A stretch of 10,406 bases of DNA from assembly GCA_036478295.1 (NCBI GenBank), contig JAZGDW010000283.1, forward strand, positions 1 to 10,406, read 5' to 3'. The position numbers were made by a program, and so were the translations under genes. Positions 2,890 through 10,163 of the stretch are shown here, piece after piece. Numbering within the stretch: the first letter of the stretch is position 1; every line of letters starts with the position of its first letter. The DNA is from Candidatus Krumholzibacteriia bacterium (lineage in GTDB: Bacteria; Krumholzibacteriota; Krumholzibacteriia; WVZY01). Under the pieces are notes generated by a model, which was not told the origin of the DNA, ran no database searches, and worked only from the letters and a program-made list of their open reading frames with translations.

Positions 2890-4296
2890 ATGACAACAGG
2901 TGCGAGTACATCCGGCGGCGGCGCTCGATCACGAGATTGCCGTCGTGAGGTTAGGCAGCGCCCAAGGCGGCTGCGGACGATATTTGGCGCCGTTTTCTTG
3001 AGAGCTCTGGTGCTGTTTGTGGTCGTCGCGTTTTTTACGGGCGCTCCTTACGCTCAGACGTCGCCCGAGGAGCCGAAGCGCGAGCGCATTACCGATCGCA
3101 AGAAAGGGGAGAGCACCGGCAAGAAGATCGCCCGCTTTCCCATCCGGCTTGCGTTTTCTCCCCTGTGGGTGCTCGACCGCGGGCTTTACCACGGGATGGT
3201 GCTGGTCGACGAAAAGAACCTGGTTGCCCGGGCGATCTATCTGAAGAATGTGTTCAGGAAGTACCGCCTAACGCCGCACATCGGTGGTGCCGGTGACGGC
3301 GCCGGATTCGGCGGTGGTGTCACGTGGGTTGCCTACGGAGGTGTGGTCAAGAAGACGTGGTCAGTCTCCGGGTCGATCAACGGCTATCAGGATCACCATG
3401 TGGATGTCGATTTCCTGGATCTGTTTGGGGAAGAGCTGCGGGTCGTAACAGCCATACACTACCGGTCGAAACCGGAGGAGGACTTTTTCGGTATCGGTCC
3501 CAACAGCCGTGAGGAGAACCGCACGACCTATAACCTGGAGCAGACGGTAGTGACGCTCGACGTGGAGATTCCGATCGCGAGCGTTCTAACGGTGGCGGGG
3601 CAAGTGGAATTCTCCGACAACAACATCTACAGCGGGGAGGATGAGGCGTTTCCGTCCACGGAAGACCTTTTTACCAGTGCGGAAGTCGCCGGGCTCGATA
3701 CCGGCGCCGAGATCGTGACCGGCGATGTCGCGTTAACACTGGATCTGCGGGACCATCCTGGCGACGCCACCGCCGGCGGTCTCCTCCGTGTGTTCGCTGG
3801 TATTGGCGAAGATACCGAGGGCGATGCCTTCAACTACTGGCACTACGGCGCGGAGGTCGAGGGATTTCTCCCGCTGCTGGGATGGAGGAGCCGCTTCGGC
3901 CCAAGAAGCGTTCTGGCAGTGCGGGTCCAGGGCGATTTCTACCAGCCCCGAAACGGGGGGACGGTGCCGTTCTTCAACATGCCATACCTTGGGGGCAGTT
4001 CGACGCTCCGGGGATTCCGCGAGTTTCGCTTCTACGATCAGGACGTCGTCTTTGCCAACTTCGAGTACCGCTGGTCACTTAATTACTTAAAGTCCGACCC
4101 GCTGGTCGAAGCCGTGCTGTTTCTTGATGAAGGCCAGGTGTTTAACCGCAGCGACGATTTCGATTTTGACAGCTTCCGAGAATCATTCGGTGGAGGCATT
4201 CGGGTGGCGTTCAAGCACAACGTCTTGTTTCGTGTGGAAGCAGGTCGCAGCACCGAAGGGACACGAGTGTTTACGAAGTTCGAGTTGATATTCTAA
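2890..4296 (+). CDS. Omp85 superfamily (BamA/TamA-type) outer-membrane beta-barrel protein lacking recognisable POTRA domains, about 468 aa
   Basis: Signal peptide ending ...LVLFVVVAFFTGAPYA|Q. Omp85 loop-6 motif LGGSSTLRGFREFRFYD, then NFEYRW, LFLDEGQVF and SFGGGIRV strands, and a terminal Phe (ELIF). The ATG at 2890 follows GAAAGGG and is preferred over the TTG at 2821; the exact start is uncertain. Confidence 0.85.
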   Translation: MTTGASTSGGGARSRDCRREVRQRPRRLRTIFGAVFLRALVLFVVVAFFTGAPYAQTSPEEPKRERITDRKKGESTGKKIARFPIRLAFSPLWVLDRGLYHGMVLVDEKNLVARAIYLKNVFRKYRLTPHIGGAGDGAGFGGGVTWVAYGGVVKKTWSVSGSINGYQDHHVDVDFLDLFGEELRVVTAIHYRSKPEEDFFGIGPNSREENRTTYNLEQTVVTLDVEIPIASVLTVAGQVEFSDNNIYSGEDEAFPSTEDLFTSAEVAGLDTGAEIVTGDVALTLDLRDHPGDATAGGLLRVFAGIGEDTEGDAFNYWHYGAEVEGFLPLLGWRSRFGPRSVLAVRVQGDFYQPRNGGTVPFFNMPYLGGSSTLRGFREFRFYDQDVVFANFEYRWSLNYLKSDPLVEAVLFLDEGQVFNRSDDFDFDSFRESFGGGIRVAFKHNVLFRVEAGRSTEGTRVFTKFELIF

Positions 4297-4312: not shown

Positions 4313-6061
4313 ATGCGAAATAGCACCTCAGTCCTGTTACTCTTGATATTGCTCGGTGTCACCGCGCTCACGCTCGGATGCGGTTCAAACCGCCACGAGT
4401 TCAGGAAAAATATCGAAGTGGATTTTGACATGGAGGATATCCCCGAGCCCAAGACGGACCCGGCCCCGCAGTACTATGATTTCTTCGATAGAACCTTTAG
4501 CAAGCAGATCCACCAGGGCTTCGATATGCCACGCAACTTCCGCAAGATTGCCGGCAAGCCGAAACAAGCCGAAAACGTCGACGCTTTCGGCAACGTGCCA
4601 AACTCGAGCTGGTTCACCAATCGCAACGGCAAGCGAAGTAGGTCGATCGAGGAGATCAAGCGCGGGCCGGATACAGGAGACGGGCCCGCCGACGGCATGT
4701 GGACAGTCATTCGCGCAAAGACGGAGGGTGTTACACCGGGCTTTACGGTGCGCGATGGGCGTGGCGGTACCTTCGTCATAAAGTTCGATCCGCAGAGTAA
4801 TCCGGAAATGGGCACGGGCGCGGAAATTATTTCGACCAAACTCTTTTACGCAATGGGCTACAACACACCGGAGAACCGGATTGTCTTTTTCACAGCAGAC
4901 CGCCTGCGGATCGACCCCGAAGCTACGGTAACCGATCCGCTCGGCCACAAGCGGCCCATGACCCGGGACGATCTCGATGACATCCGGAGCCGTGTTCACA
5001 AGCGGTCCGATGGTATATACAGAGCGGTGGCCAGCAAGTTTCTGGCGGGCAAGCCGAAGGGCCCGTACTTATATGTCGGGACCCGCAAGGATGACGCCAA
5101 CGATATCATTCCGCACGAACACCGGCGCGAACTCCGGGGCCTGAGACTCTTCGGCGCGTGGCTGAATCATAACGATATCCGGCGCATCAACTCGCTGGAT
5201 ATGTACGTCGAAGAGGAAGGGCGGCGTTTCCTCAGGCACTATCTGATCGACTTCGGGGCGACATTGGGCAGCGCCAGCGTTCACGCCAACGTCCCTAGCG
5301 AAGGGTTGGAATATCAGTTCGATCACTGGGAAGCGCAGAAATCGCTCTACACCCTGGGCCTCTACAACCGTCGCTGGCGCGAAGCCAAAGAGCCGCAATA
5401 CCAGAGCGTGGGATACTTTGAATCCGAACTTTTCAACCCCGCCAGGTGGAAACCCAACTATCCCAATCCGGCTTTCGAGAACATGACCAACCTGGACGCT
5501 CTGTGGGCGACGAAGATCATCATGTCCTTCACAGATGAGCAAATCCAGGCAGCCGTGGAGATGGGAGAGCTCAGTGATCCCGAGGCCGCCGCGTACCTCG
5601 CCAGGATTCTCATCGAGCGCCGTGACAAGATAGGACGCCACTGGTACGGCAAGGTCAACGCGATAGACAATTTCGAACTCTCGGGGTCCGGGGCATCACA
5701 AACGCTCCAGTTTGCGGACCTCGAGGTACGCGCCGGGTTCGAGAGCCTCGCCGGGACGCAGTACCGCTACCGGCTAACCCACAATGCTTGCAAGGGAACC
5801 AAAGACATCTCCGACCAATGGATACTGGACGGCAATGGGGTAAGCGGCGTTCCGGCTATATCGCTCGAGGACGCGCTGGCGGCGGCGGCACAGGCGTGGG
5901 AGGGCGCCGGCTCCCGGGAAGAATGTGACCGGTTCTTTTATCTGACGTTCTGGACCCGCCGGGTGGCCACATCGGACTGGGGCAAATGGGCGAAAGTGCA
6001 TTTCTACTTCAATGACCCGCAGGCAGGGTTCGAGATCATCGCGGTGCAACACGAGGAATAG
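4313..6061 (+). CDS. Lipoprotein with an atypical protein/lipid-kinase-like fold (HipA/PI3K-PI4K/CotH/Fam20-like motif order), 582 aa
   Basis: SPII signal MRNSTSVLLLLILLGVTALTLG|C23. Motifs in kinase order: KTEGVTPGFTVRD (Gly loop), FVIK157FD, GAE171IISTKLFYAMGY (alphaC-like), WLNHND288IRRIN293 (catalytic loop), YLID313FG. The CDS itself is certain; the kinase call rests on motifs. Confidence 0.75.
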   Translation: MRNSTSVLLLLILLGVTALTLGCGSNRHEFRKNIEVDFDMEDIPEPKTDPAPQYYDFFDRTFSKQIHQGFDMPRNFRKIAGKPKQAENVDAFGNVPNSSWFTNRNGKRSRSIEEIKRGPDTGDGPADGMWTVIRAKTEGVTPGFTVRDGRGGTFVIKFDPQSNPEMGTGAEIISTKLFYAMGYNTPENRIVFFTADRLRIDPEATVTDPLGHKRPMTRDDLDDIRSRVHKRSDGIYRAVASKFLAGKPKGPYLYVGTRKDDANDIIPHEHRRELRGLRLFGAWLNHNDIRRINSLDMYVEEEGRRFLRHYLIDFGATLGSASVHANVPSEGLEYQFDHWEAQKSLYTLGLYNRRWREAKEPQYQSVGYFESELFNPARWKPNYPNPAFENMTNLDALWATKIIMSFTDEQIQAAVEMGELSDPEAAAYLARILIERRDKIGRHWYGKVNAIDNFELSGSGASQTLQFADLEVRAGFESLAGTQYRYRLTHNACKGTKDISDQWILDGNGVSGVPAISLEDALAAAAQAWEGAGSREECDRFFYLTFWTRRVATSDWGKWAKVHFYFNDPQAGFEIIAVQHEE

Positions 6062-6128: not shown

Positions 6129-7475
6129 ATGGCAATTAGCGCTACGAAGACACCGCTGGAACGCTTTCTCGGTCTGTTTGCGGAGGTGAAACCCGGAGAG
6201 GCCGGAACGGCGCTGCTGCTCACGTTGAACATATTTCTTATCCTGATATCCTATCTCATTATGAAGCCGGTCAGGGAGGCGCTGATCCTTTCCGAGACAG
6301 GACCGGAATTCAAGGCGTACATGGCGGCGGGCATGACGTTCCTGCTCCTGTTCACCGTTCCGCTCTATGCGAAACTCGTCAGCCGCTTTTCCAGGCAATC
6401 CTTGATAAACGGTGTCACGTTCTTTTTTGCCGCGTGCCTGGTTGTATTCTGGTTACTGGCGCGTATGAAAGTTCCTCTCGGAGTCACGTTTTTTATCTGG
6501 ATCGGAATTTTCAATGTGGTCGTCATCGCCCAGTTTTGGTCCTTTGCCAACGATATTTACACGGAGGAACAGGGCAAACGGCTGTTTGCGATTATCGCGT
6601 TCGGCGCGTCGGCGGGTGCCGTCTTCGGCCCGCAAATCGCCAAAGCGTTCGTCAGAGCCATAGGACCATACGGGCTGCTGTTGACTGCCGGGGGGATCTT
6701 GCTCTTGAGCCTGTTCTTCACGAACATCGTGAATGCCCGGGAGCGCGCTCGGGAGCGCAGGCCGGAAGAAAAGGCGGAATCGAAAGAGGAACCGATCAAG
6801 AAAGGCGGTGCCTACAAGCTGGTCTTCGGGAGCCGCTATCTGCTGGCGGTCGCCCTGCTCATTCTCTTTCTGAACTGGGTGAACACGACCGGCGGGTACA
6901 TCCTGGACCGGGTCGTCAGCGAAAAGGCTGTGGAGGCGGTCGCGGCGCAACCCGGCCTAGATGAAAAGGTCTTTTATACCGAGTTTTACGGTGGGTTTTA
7001 CGGCGTTGTCAACGTCGCTGGATTGTTGATACAGCTTTTCCTGGTTTCCCGAATCCTCAAGTATTTCGGTGTGCGCGTCGCCCTGATGATCCTTCCCGTT
7101 ATCGCGCTGGCCGGATACATGTGCATCGCGTTCTTTCCCGTGTTGTCCCTCATCCGCTGGACGAAAACGGCCGAGAACGCTACGGACTACTCGCTTCAGA
7201 ATACGCTGCGTGGTATCCTGTTTCTGCCAACGACCCGTGAGGAGAAATACAAGGCCAAGCAGGCGATCGACACGATTTTCGTGCGCATCGGAGATGCGCT
7301 CTCCGGGCTGCTCGTTTTTGTGGGCACGCACCTGGCGTTCCAGACCAAACATTTCGCCATGGTGAACCTCTCGTTCGTTGTGGTGTGGTTGGGACTCGCG
7401 GCGTTCGTCGGCAAAGAATACTTGAAACTCGCGAAGAAACGCTCTGAGGAAAGGAGTGAGGAGGCCTGCGCATGA
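6129..7475 (+). CDS. NTT/TLC-family (ATP:ADP antiporter family, MFS fold) nucleotide transporter, 448 aa
   Basis: About 12 hydrophobic segments. Family motifs YLIMKPVREALIL, AQFWSFANDIYTEEQGKRLFAII and DYSLQNTLRGILFLPTTREEKYKAKQAIDTIFVRIGD parallel the NTT motifs FWGFAN..EAKRFY and YSLFD..KEMAYIPL..K.KGKAAIDV..R.GK. RBS GAAAGGA at 6115-6121. Confidence 0.85.
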   Translation: MAISATKTPLERFLGLFAEVKPGEAGTALLLTLNIFLILISYLIMKPVREALILSETGPEFKAYMAAGMTFLLLFTVPLYAKLVSRFSRQSLINGVTFFFAACLVVFWLLARMKVPLGVTFFIWIGIFNVVVIAQFWSFANDIYTEEQGKRLFAIIAFGASAGAVFGPQIAKAFVRAIGPYGLLLTAGGILLLSLFFTNIVNARERARERRPEEKAESKEEPIKKGGAYKLVFGSRYLLAVALLILFLNWVNTTGGYILDRVVSEKAVEAVAAQPGLDEKVFYTEFYGGFYGVVNVAGLLIQLFLVSRILKYFGVRVALMILPVIALAGYMCIAFFPVLSLIRWTKTAENATDYSLQNTLRGILFLPTTREEKYKAKQAIDTIFVRIGDALSGLLVFVGTHLAFQTKHFAMVNLSFVVVWLGLAAFVGKEYLKLAKKRSEERSEEACA

Positions 7476-8236
7476 GAAAACTTCTTACATTTCTTCTGGC
7501 AGTGGTGGTCCACTTGTCAGGCATTCCATCGGCTCGCTCGGAAGGGCTTAGTGACGAGGCACTGGATCGACTGGAAAAGACCCATCCTTTTTTTATCATC
7601 CTCGATCGGAATGAGAAAGGGTTCGTCAGATACCTTTACACCGACCGGAGTGGTCATCTCCACGTTTATTCCGTTCAAGAGGGCAAATCGGTGCTGGAGT
7701 GGGAGACGGAGAGCATGGGGTCACGGGTCAGCTCCGTCTTTGTGACGGACGTGAACGCTGATGGACGTGATGAGATCCTGGTGTCGACGGTGGGCGGTCG
7801 CATCGTCGCCTTTGACGCTATGAATTATGACAAGCTGGGCGAGAACCTGCTAGAACCTTTCAAGAATATCAAGTGCATGGTAGCCGCGAACCTCGACAAC
7901 GATGAACAGCAGGAAATCATTTTTATCGCAGACGGGTACTTGTATATCTATGACGGGCTGACGAGAGTCCGTGAATGGAAGAGCCACAACGAGTACCAGG
8001 CTACGGAACTGCTGGTCGCGAACATCGATGACGATGAACAACCCGAGATCATCTTGAACTCGGGTGCGATAATCGATTCCCAATTCTACCGGGAAGATCT
8101 CAACTACGATATGGGGTTCGGAAACAGGATGCGGCTCGTGGATATCAATGGAGACGGGTATCCGGAGATCATCGGAGACGTCGGGGATTACAGTCTTAGG
8201 ATCTTCGATCTCTACGCCGAGAGGGAACTCTGGTAA
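7472..8236 (+). CDS. Secreted FG-GAP/VCBS-repeat (beta-propeller-type, Ca2+-binding) protein, 254 aa
   Basis: Signal peptide MRKLLTFLLAVVVHLSGIPSARS. Four DxDxDG-type loops: DVNADGRDEI, NLDNDEQQEI, NIDDDEQPEI, DINGDGYPEI. ATGA overlap with the NTT stop and a GAGGAGG RBS. Confidence 0.8.
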   Translation: MRKLLTFLLAVVVHLSGIPSARSEGLSDEALDRLEKTHPFFIILDRNEKGFVRYLYTDRSGHLHVYSVQEGKSVLEWETESMGSRVSSVFVTDVNADGRDEILVSTVGGRIVAFDAMNYDKLGENLLEPFKNIKCMVAANLDNDEQQEIIFIADGYLYIYDGLTRVREWKSHNEYQATELLVANIDDDEQPEIILNSGAIIDSQFYREDLNYDMGFGNRMRLVDINGDGYPEIIGDVGDYSLRIFDLYAERELW

Positions 8237-8253: not shown

Positions 8254-8811
8254 CTAGTCGCCCATTAGACTCTTGAGCTTTGCGAGCACCGCCCCCAACT
8301 CGGCCTGCGCCGGCTCGCGGCCGTGTGTCTGGTGGACCAGTACTCCGTGCCGGTCGAAGACGAAAATATTGCTGGCGCCTTTCTCGAACTGATACGCCTC
8401 GGCGAACTCGCCTTCCCAGTCCAGGAGTACCCAGTTCTCTTTTTCTTTCGGCAGCTTTCCCCTGACCATTTCCCTCATGAAGTGCGGGATCCCGCGCATG
8501 TTCGCTACCCGCAGGAATCTGATGTCATCGAACCCGCTCTCGTCCTCCAGGGAATCCTTGATCGCCCGGGTCCACAGGCGGCTGTACTTGCGGCCCTCCC
8601 GGCCGCTTGCAATCACGACAACCACGTGGCCGTGGTAATCCTCGTCGGCGTGGACACGTTCGAATTGATCTTTGATCTTGAACGAGATCAGCGTGTCTTC
8701 CTGTGCGGCCCGCGGGTGCGTGGGAAGAAGCACCGCCATAATTGAGAGGAGAAGCGCTACGGAGAGAAGTGACATCGAAGTGACAGACAATGCGCTGCGA
8801 GGTCGGCTCAT
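8254..8811 (-). CDS. Exported thioredoxin-fold protein without CxxC (YtfJ/ATP10/redoxin-like), about 185 aa
   Basis: Start ATG at 8811 lies 4 nt after the permease stop. Signal peptide ending ...LLPTHPRAA|Q. Redoxin-like motifs FKIKDQFERVH, GHVVVVIAS, VLLDWEGEFAEAY and NIFVFDRHGVLV. No Cys from this start onward. Confidence 0.7.
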   Translation of the reverse strand: MSRPRSALSVTSMSLLSVALLLSIMAVLLPTHPRAAQEDTLISFKIKDQFERVHADEDYHGHVVVVIASGREGRKYSRLWTRAIKDSLEDESGFDDIRFLRVANMRGIPHFMREMVRGKLPKEKENWVLLDWEGEFAEAYQFEKGASNIFVFDRHGVLVHQTHGREPAQAELGAVLAKLKSLMGD

Positions 8812-8815
8812 GTCT

Positions 8816-9955
8816 CTACTCGAAGCGGAACACCTTGACCGACAGCGCGACCAGCAACGCCGTGGCCGCGGCCATGCCAAGAAGATGTGGCGCCACGCTG
8901 GCGGGCCCGGCGGCAAAGCTGATCAGCTTGTGCAGCGCGTCCATCGCCCAGCCCGTGGGGATGAAGAGCTGGATCGACTGCATCCAGGCGGGCGTAATCT
9001 CGATCGGCCACCAGCAGCCGCCGAGGGCAGCGAGCACGTTGGCCGCTATGACACCGATCGCGACCGCCTGCCCTTCCGTGCGCGCGACGCTTCCGAGAAC
9101 CACTCCCAGGGCGGCCATCATCGCCCCGTAGACCAGCATGACGGCGATGACCGCCGCCAGGTCGGGACCCCAGTTCATCTTGAACAACACCGTGCCGGCC
9201 AGCATGCCGAAGGCGATCTGCACGACGCCCAGCGCCAGCTTGCCGCCCCACTTACCGAGGACGACGCTCAGGCGGCTGATCGGCGTGTAGGCCAGGCGGC
9301 GGAGCAAACCCTCTCTGCGCTCGCTCAGCAGCAGGACCGATCCGCTGGTGGCCATGACCATCAGTGTGAACATAACCAGGATGCCGGGAATGGATTGCTC
9401 GAATCCATGCGGGATGTGTTTACGTTTGCCGGCGGGCTTGACCTCGAGCTTCAGCGCTCGCGGCATTTCGGCCAGGCCCTTGAAATTCTCCGGCGTCGGG
9501 GCGTCGTCCATTTCACCCAGGGCCACGAGATCGGCGAGGACGGTGTAAGCGGCTCGCTGGACGCGGAGCTGGTCGTAGTCGGTGCCGATGCCTTCACCCT
9601 TGCGCGCAAACTCGAGGGTGACCGGGCGTCCGGCGAGAACCGAGTCGGTGAAACCATCGGGTACCACGAGCTGCCGGGTGTAGCGGGCGAACAGCGCCGC
9701 CGAATCCGGGCGGGCGACCACATAGTCGTTCTCCTCCAGGCGCCGTGTCAGCTCGTCGACGAGAAAACCGGCGGACTCGTCCGCCTGGAGAGCCACGGTG
9801 TCCTTGCGCGTGCCGCTCGGCCCGAAGCCGCCCGTGATGGTGCCGATAAAATAGAAAAACACGATCGGCATCACGAAGACCCAGAAGAGCGTCTCCCGGG
9901 CCCGCAGCATGTACTTCACGTCTTTGCTTGCTATAAAGAACACATCTTTCAGCAT
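8816..9955 (-). CDS. ABC-2 type transporter permease, 379 aa
   Basis: MLKDVFFIASKDVKYMLRARETLFWVFVMP N-terminus, an extracytoplasmic domain, then ERREGLLRRLAYTPISRLSVVLGK and LGGCWWPIEITPAWMQSIQLFIPTGWAMDAL ABC-2 signatures. ATG at 9955 lies 4 nt after the upstream stop. Confidence 0.9.
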   Translation of the reverse strand: MLKDVFFIASKDVKYMLRARETLFWVFVMPIVFFYFIGTITGGFGPSGTRKDTVALQADESAGFLVDELTRRLEENDYVVARPDSAALFARYTRQLVVPDGFTDSVLAGRPVTLEFARKGEGIGTDYDQLRVQRAAYTVLADLVALGEMDDAPTPENFKGLAEMPRALKLEVKPAGKRKHIPHGFEQSIPGILVMFTLMVMATSGSVLLLSERREGLLRRLAYTPISRLSVVLGKWGGKLALGVVQIAFGMLAGTVLFKMNWGPDLAAVIAVMLVYGAMMAALGVVLGSVARTEGQAVAIGVIAANVLAALGGCWWPIEITPAWMQSIQLFIPTGWAMDALHKLISFAAGPASVAPHLLGMAAATALLVALSVKVFRFE

Positions 9956-9959
9956 AATT

Positions 9960-10163
9960 TCAACCCTGGGCAAAGCCGCTTCGCAGCCGCCTCGCGCTCC
10001 ACAGGAACAACACGGTCCCTGCCACAAGCAGCCCGGCGAAGACGCGGGCAAGTGTCCCCAACTCCATCCGCCCGAGTAGAATCGCCTTCAGCTGGTCGAG
10101 CGCCCAACCGTTGGGTGTGAGCCGGCCGACAGCCGCCATCGCAGGAGGCATAGCCTCGAAGGG
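9960..10163 (-). pseudogene. 3' fragment of a second ABC-2 permease, truncated at about 10164
   Basis: PFEAMPPAMAAVGRLTPNGWALDQLKAILLG followed by a TM helix is the same C-terminal motif as in the downstream permease (PIEITPAWMQSIQLFIPTGWAMDAL). Upstream of PFEA the frame turns hydrophilic and non-permease-like and reaches TAA at 10226-10224. Confidence 0.75.

Follow-up and report, generated by a model that had tools for sequence, protein, structure and literature searches.

How could a kinase work outside the cytoplasm of a free-living diderm bacterium, and from where would it draw its ATP? This question is raised by three consecutive forward-strand genes in a stretch of 10,406 nucleotides from a Candidatus Krumholzibacteriia bacterium (contig JAZGDW010000283.1), which as a whole is referred to as the window. 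They encode a predicted POTRA-less barrel of the Omp85 family with a signal peptide (2890..4296), a putative exported atypical kinase lipoprotein of 582 amino acids (4313..6061), recognised by motifs, alignment and structural model, and a single-domain homologue of the NTT/TLC nucleotide carriers of 448 amino acids (6129..7475). The locus joins three questions in one testable module, namely the ATP supply of the periplasm, the role of NTTs in free-living bacteria and the function of noNterm Omp85 proteins. According to the accessible parts of the respective sources, how ATP gets into the periplasm is unknown, no ATP/ADP translocase being known from Gram-negative bacteria (PMC7432876), a role has yet to be assigned to the NTTs of free-living bacteria (PMC5381601), and little is understood of the noNterm Omp85 proteins (PMC11358297). 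Our tentative answer, to which we give somewhat less than an even chance, is a carrier-fed periplasmic kinase situated under the barrel, acting on a target at the outer membrane and reversed by a phosphoesterase.

The original prediction, made from the sequence alone, had described the middle gene as a lipoprotein with an intact atypical-kinase catalytic set. All named motifs were found at their positions: Cys23-Gly-Ser, EGVTPG (138-143), Lys157, Glu171, Asp288-x4-Asn293, Asp313-Phe-Gly, and the cysteines 493 and 538. The catalytic codons lie at 4781 (K157), 4823 (E171), 5174 (D288), 5189 (N293) and 5249 (D313). This ordered motif set is not due to chance. The corresponding pattern matched 1 of 2000 shuffles and 4 of the 1053 open reading frames (ORFs) of 400-800 amino acids in the same genome, these being two Hanks-type kinases, the window kinase, and its paralogue. 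K157, E171, D288, N293 and D313 were invariant in 120 out of 120 close homologues. They were mostly kept in a distant set of 145 representatives of 50%-identity clusters (K in 138/144, E in 103/145 with a further 30 carrying D, D in 140/145, N in 137/145, and D in 141/145).

An AlphaFold2 model of the kinase (predicted local distance difference test, pLDDT, 94.4; predicted template modelling score, pTM, 0.93) has a bilobal kinase fold, in which K157 stands at a strand end, E171 within helix 166-181, and D313 after strand 304-311. Together with the fold match, this topology suggests that the catalytic residues meet in one active site. Foldseek ranked Fam20A/C and CtkA at the top. A wide structural search yielded CtkA (3akj; Z 13.3, root-mean-square deviation (rmsd) 4.2 Å over 232 residues), Fam20C (Z 12.9), hydra Fam20 (12.8), CotH (12.4) and PI4KIIalpha (12.3), and after this tied group HipT, actin-fragmin kinase, and HipA; all 14 top rows were atypical kinases (Z 9.2-13.3). 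By its modelled fold the window protein thus belongs to the atypical protein-kinase-like superfamily comprising the HipA, CtkA, PI3-4K, Fam20 and CotH group, and the first reading as an exported atypical kinase is supported by sequence and model. No Pfam match to PF06702 (Fam20) was obtained at E values up to 1, nor were there matches to PF08757 (CotH), PF00454 (PI3_PI4_kinase), or the HipA families. Searching the sequences of solved structures with the kinase alignment gave just armadillo repeats (E 0.46-0.87). The nearest Atlas cluster, 11% of whose members are Fam20C, scored 0.79 and is a lead only.

With H. pylori CtkA and the HipA/HipT-type kinases the window protein shares the fold and the D-x4-N and DFG layout, but identity is about 12%, and a signal peptide, two insertions and a fibronectin type III (FN3)-like tail set it apart. 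Unlike the HipA toxin it has no antitoxin among its recurring neighbours. Fam20 kinases of the secretory pathway receive their lumenal ATP through carriers. The window kinase (Z 11-12.9 to Fam20A/B/C, its top Foldseek matches) would resemble them if it is extracytoplasmic with ATP delivered by a carrier, although it is bacterial, has no conserved disulfides, and has a beta-barrel partner. CotH and PI4KIIalpha provide precedents for an extracytoplasmic and a membrane-surface kinase, respectively, but act in another compartment and with other partners.

The kinase domain spans about residues 119-450 (4667..5662), as delimited by aligned structural ranges and predicted secondary structure. It includes a segment after the DFG motif (residues 327-360; 5291..5392) with the invariant residues G331, D337 and G349. 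The C-terminal region had been called beta-rich. About residues 449-570 (5657..6022), poorly conserved in sequence, form a predicted beta-sandwich and match fibronectin-III domains with Z 7-8 and an rmsd of 2.5-3.1 Å over about 90 residues, although this is a common fold. In contrast, the disulfide proposed between C493 and C538 was rejected as a family feature, since each cysteine occurs in just 10 of the 120 close homologues and in 1 out of 133 and 0 out of 86 distant representatives.

The protein starts with a signal peptide and lipobox (4313..4381), the last residue of which is Cys23 (codon 4379-4381). The claim of an exported lipoprotein therefore held for the window protein, which has both the hydrophobic stretch and the lipobox cysteine. 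Among homologues with a complete start, our own pattern rule found a hydrophobic signal peptide in 108 of 110 close and 125 of 129 distant sequences, and a lipobox in about half of the family (58/110 and 61/129); a cysteine occupies the lipobox column in 63 out of 120 close homologues. Because the lipobox is restricted to about half of the family, the trait conserved is export and not lipidation. None of the 58 close and 61 distant lipobox-bearing homologues has Asp at position +2, in line with outer-membrane sorting by the +2 rule, which was derived for E. coli and might not apply to the Krumholzibacteriota lineage.

The family is large and yet without a curated model. Scoring of 8000 candidates resulted in 4459 matches, with Candidatus Latescibacterota/Latescibacteria as the closest named relatives, and the kinase profile collected 4246 clusters of 50% identity at E values up to 0.001 and 1571 at 1e-30. 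As anticipated, homologues in the databases are named only as hypothetical proteins, and no Pfam or NCBIfam family covers them. A plasmid search using the window kinase gave no match, and scanning genome contigs with this one protein as query yielded only 4 loci. Some members are 1150-amino-acid forms with a C-terminal region of 600 amino acids without Pfam match (P0121-P0131). A fusion of this family to a barrel was considered and not retained, as all 11 longer forms combine the kinase with an unassigned domain, which is weak evidence of absence.

Two putative partners had no place in the original prediction. The first is encoded directly upstream. The barrel gene ends 16 bases before the kinase gene; its ORF is open from TTG 2821, and ATG 2890 is preceded by a ribosome-binding site. 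The product matches PF01103 (E 1.8e-16) and, by profile, BamA/TamA, but no POTRA family, and it carries the loop-6 RGF motif (R374 and G375 conserved in 56 and 53 of 57 sequences). Its predicted barrel, the RGF motif and the absence of POTRA domains assign it to the noNterm Omp85 proteins, a subfamily defined together with the Metallo Omp85 proteins by Heinz and Lithgow 2014 (PMC4104836, consulted in part). From noNterm Omp85 proteins in general, the window-type subset would differ by its dedicated periplasmic enzyme partner; the word kinase is absent from the portion of the main text of PMC11358297 that was available. A barrel gene lies directly upstream of the kinase in 70 of 72 loci. These remain from 83 metagenome and genome loci after 11 with too little upstream DNA were dropped, the metagenome loci being the best 80 of 436 confirmed matches. 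The same arrangement was found in 21 of 23 hand-picked 20-kb genome loci. One miss among the 72 loci (L003) is a script error, as two kinase genes stand in tandem there with the barrel gene ahead of both.

Modelling of barrel residues 56-468 with kinase residues 24-582 gave a complex score of 0.66, compared to 0.00 for the best control. Of 157 solved complexes 116 scored this high, as did 2 of 215 mismatched pairs; with our own alignments used for the model, this calibration is only rough. Model runs shared at least 77% of contacts, with a partner pLDDT of at least 81. The model supports binding of the kinase to the barrel and predicts docking on its periplasmic face. The contacted barrel residues (330-340, 393-410, 62-74) align with turns of BamA which we take to be periplasmic, and on the kinase side the interface is formed mainly by the segment after DFG, including the invariant G349.

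The second partner follows downstream. The window NTT scores 64.9 bits with PF03219 (cut-off 21) and 62.8 with TIGR00769, below the cut-off of 387.2 of that model, and its profile matches solved ADP,ATP carriers with an E value of 1.3e-38. It thereby shares PF03219 with the NTT/TLC carriers of Major et al. 2017, and an NTT-HEAT gene along with a domain binding cyclic nucleotides (cNBD) occurs at the paralogous locus described below. A point of difference is the free-living host of the window NTT. That study described NTTs and NTT-HEAT-cNBD proteins in free-living bacteria, and kinase, periplasm, Omp85 and export go unmentioned in the part of it that was accessible (PMC5381601). The host genome contains 2 kinases of this family and 2 NTTs, every NTT lying inside a kinase operon.

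Beyond this genome, NTTs track the kinase. Within the host's own phylum (151 genomes), an NTT was found in 53 of 55 genomes with a window-family kinase, compared to 41 of 96 without. Including a second, barrel-fused kinase family the counts were 66 of 68 versus 28 of 83, and 38 of 39 versus 3 of 30 when counted by genus. At an NTT threshold of E up to 1e-90 they became 63 of 68 versus 1 of 83; this threshold was chosen with the data already in view and the profile derived from NTTs linked to kinases, and these figures are not used as main evidence. In a second phylum, represented by 121 genomes centred on an Acidobacteria record and with 7 weak kinase matches (E above 1e-7) excluded, NTTs occurred in 20 of 23 genomes with a window-family kinase, in 7 of 7 with the fused family, and, taking the three exported kinase families together, in 37 of 40 genomes with at least one of them versus 15 of 81 lacking all three. 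As kinship makes the genomes dependent on one another, the counts are descriptive only.

The second family was found beside the NTTs of one genus missing the window's family, where it is present in 11 of 12 genomes, and in the own phylum it occurs in 13 genomes without a window-family kinase; a fourteenth match (G126), spanning just linker and barrel, was excluded. Its members (L137 6802-9351, L138, L139, L179-L184) combine a signal peptide, a kinase-fold domain (PI4KIIalpha Z 14.9, CotH 14.7, CtkA 13.4), a beta-rich linker and an Omp85 barrel in one chain, and the window barrel is homologous to this barrel with a probability of 99.3%. In Bacteroidota a phosphoesterase stands in front of the kinase-fold domain. 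The third family is held by 7 of 11 NTT loci from those genomes of the second phylum that have no window-family kinase. It comprises exported kinases of about 280 amino acids, weakly TIGR03843- and PF00454-like and sometimes fused to a phosphoesterase (e.g. L168 13086-13979, L170 7036-9225, L173, L177, L007 4124-6337), with up to 11 matches per genome. In the second phylum an NTT accompanies this family in all 31 of its genomes, of which 5 supplied seeds for the profile and 26 did not, and in the own phylum the family is absent (0 of 151 genomes). Since profile-profile comparison among the three families gave no significant links, their kinship rests on fold and motifs. In a midpoint-rooted tree of 101 NTT domains, which contains no characterised NTT, the short NTTs beside all three kinase families fall into one clade of 47 (support 0.986), and 8 unlinked short NTTs form a separate clade (support 1.0). 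Members of the latter (L143-L150) are never within 6.5 kb of a kinase, and one precedes a gene for an NAD-dependent epimerase. An apparent NTT-Omp85 fusion (L126) was treated as a frameshift artefact, the NTT match stopping early and continuing in another frame.

The joining of a kinase-fold domain to an Omp85 barrel has been recorded before, so far only as a domain architecture. In the accessible part of PMC4104836, supplementary file 3 gives Phyre2 matches to CtkA (3akj, 99.6-99.8) between the phosphoesterase and the barrel of Metallo Omp85 proteins; the PDB code occurs 62 times, in at least 29 rows. Likewise, Fulvitalea axinellae WP_338395284.1 unites phosphoesterase, second-family kinase and barrel in one chain. 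The word kinase is absent from the accessible main text of PMC4104836, which proposes a protease role. Window-type systems have the same three parts, but as separate genes, and the window kinase is lipid-anchored, ends in an FN3-like domain, and belongs to a different family with canonical Lys and Asn and no profile match to the fused kinase. Judged by its sequence, the window system is a split counterpart of Metallo Omp85 with a different, canonical kinase. The split kinase family and its link to NTTs were not found in the literature, of which few subscription papers were covered; surveys of kinase-like families there may list the family. Next to the gene for the Fulvitalea triple fusion (L185 2727-10493, NZ_AP025316.1) lie genes for an HD-PycTM protein and for an adenylate/guanylate cyclase.

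Further neighbours recur around the kinase. The most common, in 18 of 114 loci used for neighbour clustering, is a calcineurin-like phosphoesterase; 11 of 83 loci in one set and 6 of 23 in the other have it within 6 kb of the kinase. Other genes that reappear encode Hanks kinases, NTT-HEAT with a cyclic nucleotide monophosphate (cNMP)-binding protein, two-component systems and PAP2 phosphatases. The window locus itself contains neither a phosphoesterase nor signalling genes. A paralogous operon in the same genome (L115 8750-18476, G000:C301), whose kinase is 49% identical, has the order barrel, kinase, phosphoesterase, NTT-HEAT, cNMP-binding protein, PAS histidine kinase, and response regulator, and the phosphoesterase at this locus is a lipoprotein in the host's own lineage.

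In the mechanism that we favour, the kinase would be an active ATP-dependent enzyme of the periplasm, held by its lipid anchor in the outer membrane's inner leaflet and sitting beneath the upstream barrel at the position taken by POTRA domains in other Omp85 proteins. The downstream NTT would export ATP across the inner membrane, probably in exchange for the ADP made by the kinase. The kinase would phosphorylate a target at or in the outer membrane, most likely an envelope protein that the barrel handles or binds, and the exported metallophosphoesterase often encoded in such loci may strip the phosphate, resulting in a reversible envelope switch. We favour a protein as the target on account of the phosphatase paired with the kinase, the signalling genes nearby and the large number of third-family paralogues. 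Of this scheme, the fold, the conserved catalytic set, the export signal, the pairing with the barrel gene and the co-occurrence with NTTs are shown by computation and the docking is predicted; catalytic activity, the direction and substrate of the NTT, the target and the part played by the phosphoesterase are inferred. More broadly, it is conceivable, and in our view just on the doubtful side of evenly balanced, that many free-living diderms have a dedicated periplasmic ATP economy in which NTTs supply exported atypical kinases of three or more families along with their phosphatases. If true, this would be a bacterial counterpart of phosphorylation in the secretory pathway, and would provide a function for free-living NTTs and for some of the noNterm and Metallo Omp85 proteins as well as a route for ATP across the inner membrane.

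Several observations weigh against this mechanism. Characterised NTT carriers are known for the uptake of ATP or nucleotides, and substrates of NTTs cannot be predicted from sequence according to the part of PMC6995639 that was available. Residues K155, E245 and K527 of AtNTT1, required for nucleotide binding or exchange (PMC3306366, consulted in part), align with A66, G126 and D389 in the window NTT. The AtNTT1 numbering was fixed by one offset that suits all three residues. Other basic residues (R49, K373, K377, R386) are kept. Of 21 loci with long flanks, no more than 13 have an NTT within 6 kb, and this holds for each of two locus sets; three close NTTs are located away from any kinase. 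Five kinase-bearing genomes have no NTT at an E value of 0.01. Two of these five are single-contig assemblies whose kinases keep the catalytic motifs (G238 with 5.3 Mb, and G126 with 3.8 Mb, 80% complete and containing runs of N), and no NTT was found on three Bacteroidota plasmids with a fused-family kinase, in a search of the plasmids only. The kinship of the genomes counted also belongs here. Two of the contacted barrel turns carry insertions absent from most homologues. Finally, the fused family has an invariant Arg in place of the beta3 Lys and Gln in place of the catalytic-loop Asn, and therefore may not be a conventional kinase. Close short NTTs (L151-L153) adjoin aminotransferase/nitrilase or peptidase genes, with a kinase elsewhere in those genomes.

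The main rival, which we regard as unlikely, keeps the site and the ATP supply and replaces the protein target by a glycan or the head group of a lipid in the outer membrane's inner leaflet, the barrel then being a scaffold or lipid-presenting gate. Since Fam20, CotH, PI4KIIalpha and CtkA are tied as structural matches, the fold cannot discriminate between a protein and a lipid or glycan substrate; PI4KIIalpha and hydra Fam20, a xylose kinase (PMC7948968, consulted in part), stand level with the protein kinases. The hydrophobic segment after DFG faces both barrel and membrane in the model, and the patatin-Omp85 fusion PlpD is a precedent for a lipid enzyme on such a barrel (architecture in PMC4104836). 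Genes of the PAP2 family, which 6 of 83 loci have within 6 kb, and of GT87 glycosyltransferases, recurring in 4 loci, would also fit. However, genes for phosphoesterases, Hanks kinases and two-component systems are commoner neighbours than these, and the kinase family has no PI3_PI4_kinase match.

Somewhat less probable still is inward signalling or uptake, in which a small molecule would enter via the barrel and be phosphorylated by the kinase, the product would be imported or sensed by the NTT or NTT-HEAT protein, and the signal would pass on to the cNMP-binding-like protein and two-component genes. The order of the paralogous operon, which ends with just these genes, would be explained, as would the frequent presence of short and HEAT-type NTTs in one locus. 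The loss of the three AtNTT1 residues is consistent with it, as is the deviation of the cNMP-binding-like protein behind NTT-HEAT (L115 15954-16400 and related), mostly FGTWALF...PR.AT, in which Thr, Ala or Ile replaces the Glu that is usual in the canonical phosphate-binding cassette. But this scheme still requires a periplasmic phosphoryl donor, and the window locus offers the short NTT only, without signalling genes.

We give little chance to a repurposed fold, such as a nucleotide sensor, an AMPylase or other transferase, or a barrel regulator, or to a kinase living on ATP leaked into the periplasm, with a shared regulon behind the NTT link. Genomes with an intact kinase and no NTT are in its favour, as are the non-canonical residues of the fused family and the periplasmic ATP pool of about 24 uM reported for E. 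coli, an organism without a carrier of this kind (PMC7432876, accessible part). On the other hand, the canonical Lys, Glu, Asp, Asn and Asp are intact in the window family, and three kinase families without detectable mutual sequence similarity in pairwise profile tests each track NTTs. Equally improbable is a two-partner-like secretion, in which the kinase would leave through the barrel for the cell surface or the medium as a CtkA-like effector using external ATP: a barrel gene followed by that of its passenger is reminiscent of TpsB/TpsA, CtkA heads the structural matches, and the periplasmic pose could be a pre-secretion state, but the barrel is of the Omp85 type without POTRA match, no TpsB, POTRA_2, ShlB or TPS-domain Pfam match was obtained on barrel or kinase, half of the kinase family is lipid-anchored, the second-family kinase remains fused to its barrel, no immunity-like gene recurs among the neighbour clusters, and the link to an inner-membrane carrier would be left unexplained.

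The remaining genes of the window were rejected as parts of the module. Queries with the FG-GAP protein, the redoxin-like protein and the ABC permease match nothing in other loci, and a cytochrome gene is not conserved near the kinase. A scan of the locus for promoters and terminators stayed at chance level. In other loci, a Hanks-type Ser/Thr kinase of 530-620 amino acids was repeatedly encoded beside an NTT-HEAT gene (L012, L056, L064, L075, L135-L139). Upstream of the barrel, the forward strand of the window encodes a multiheme cytochrome c of 767 amino acids with HEAT and TPR repeats (390-2693). The reverse strand carries genes for a redoxin/YtfJ-like protein and an ABC-2 permease (8254-10051; Pfam). 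Directly behind the NTT follows a forward-strand gene for an exported FG-GAP/beta-propeller protein identified by Pfam (7472-8236), the start of which overlaps the NTT stop codon.

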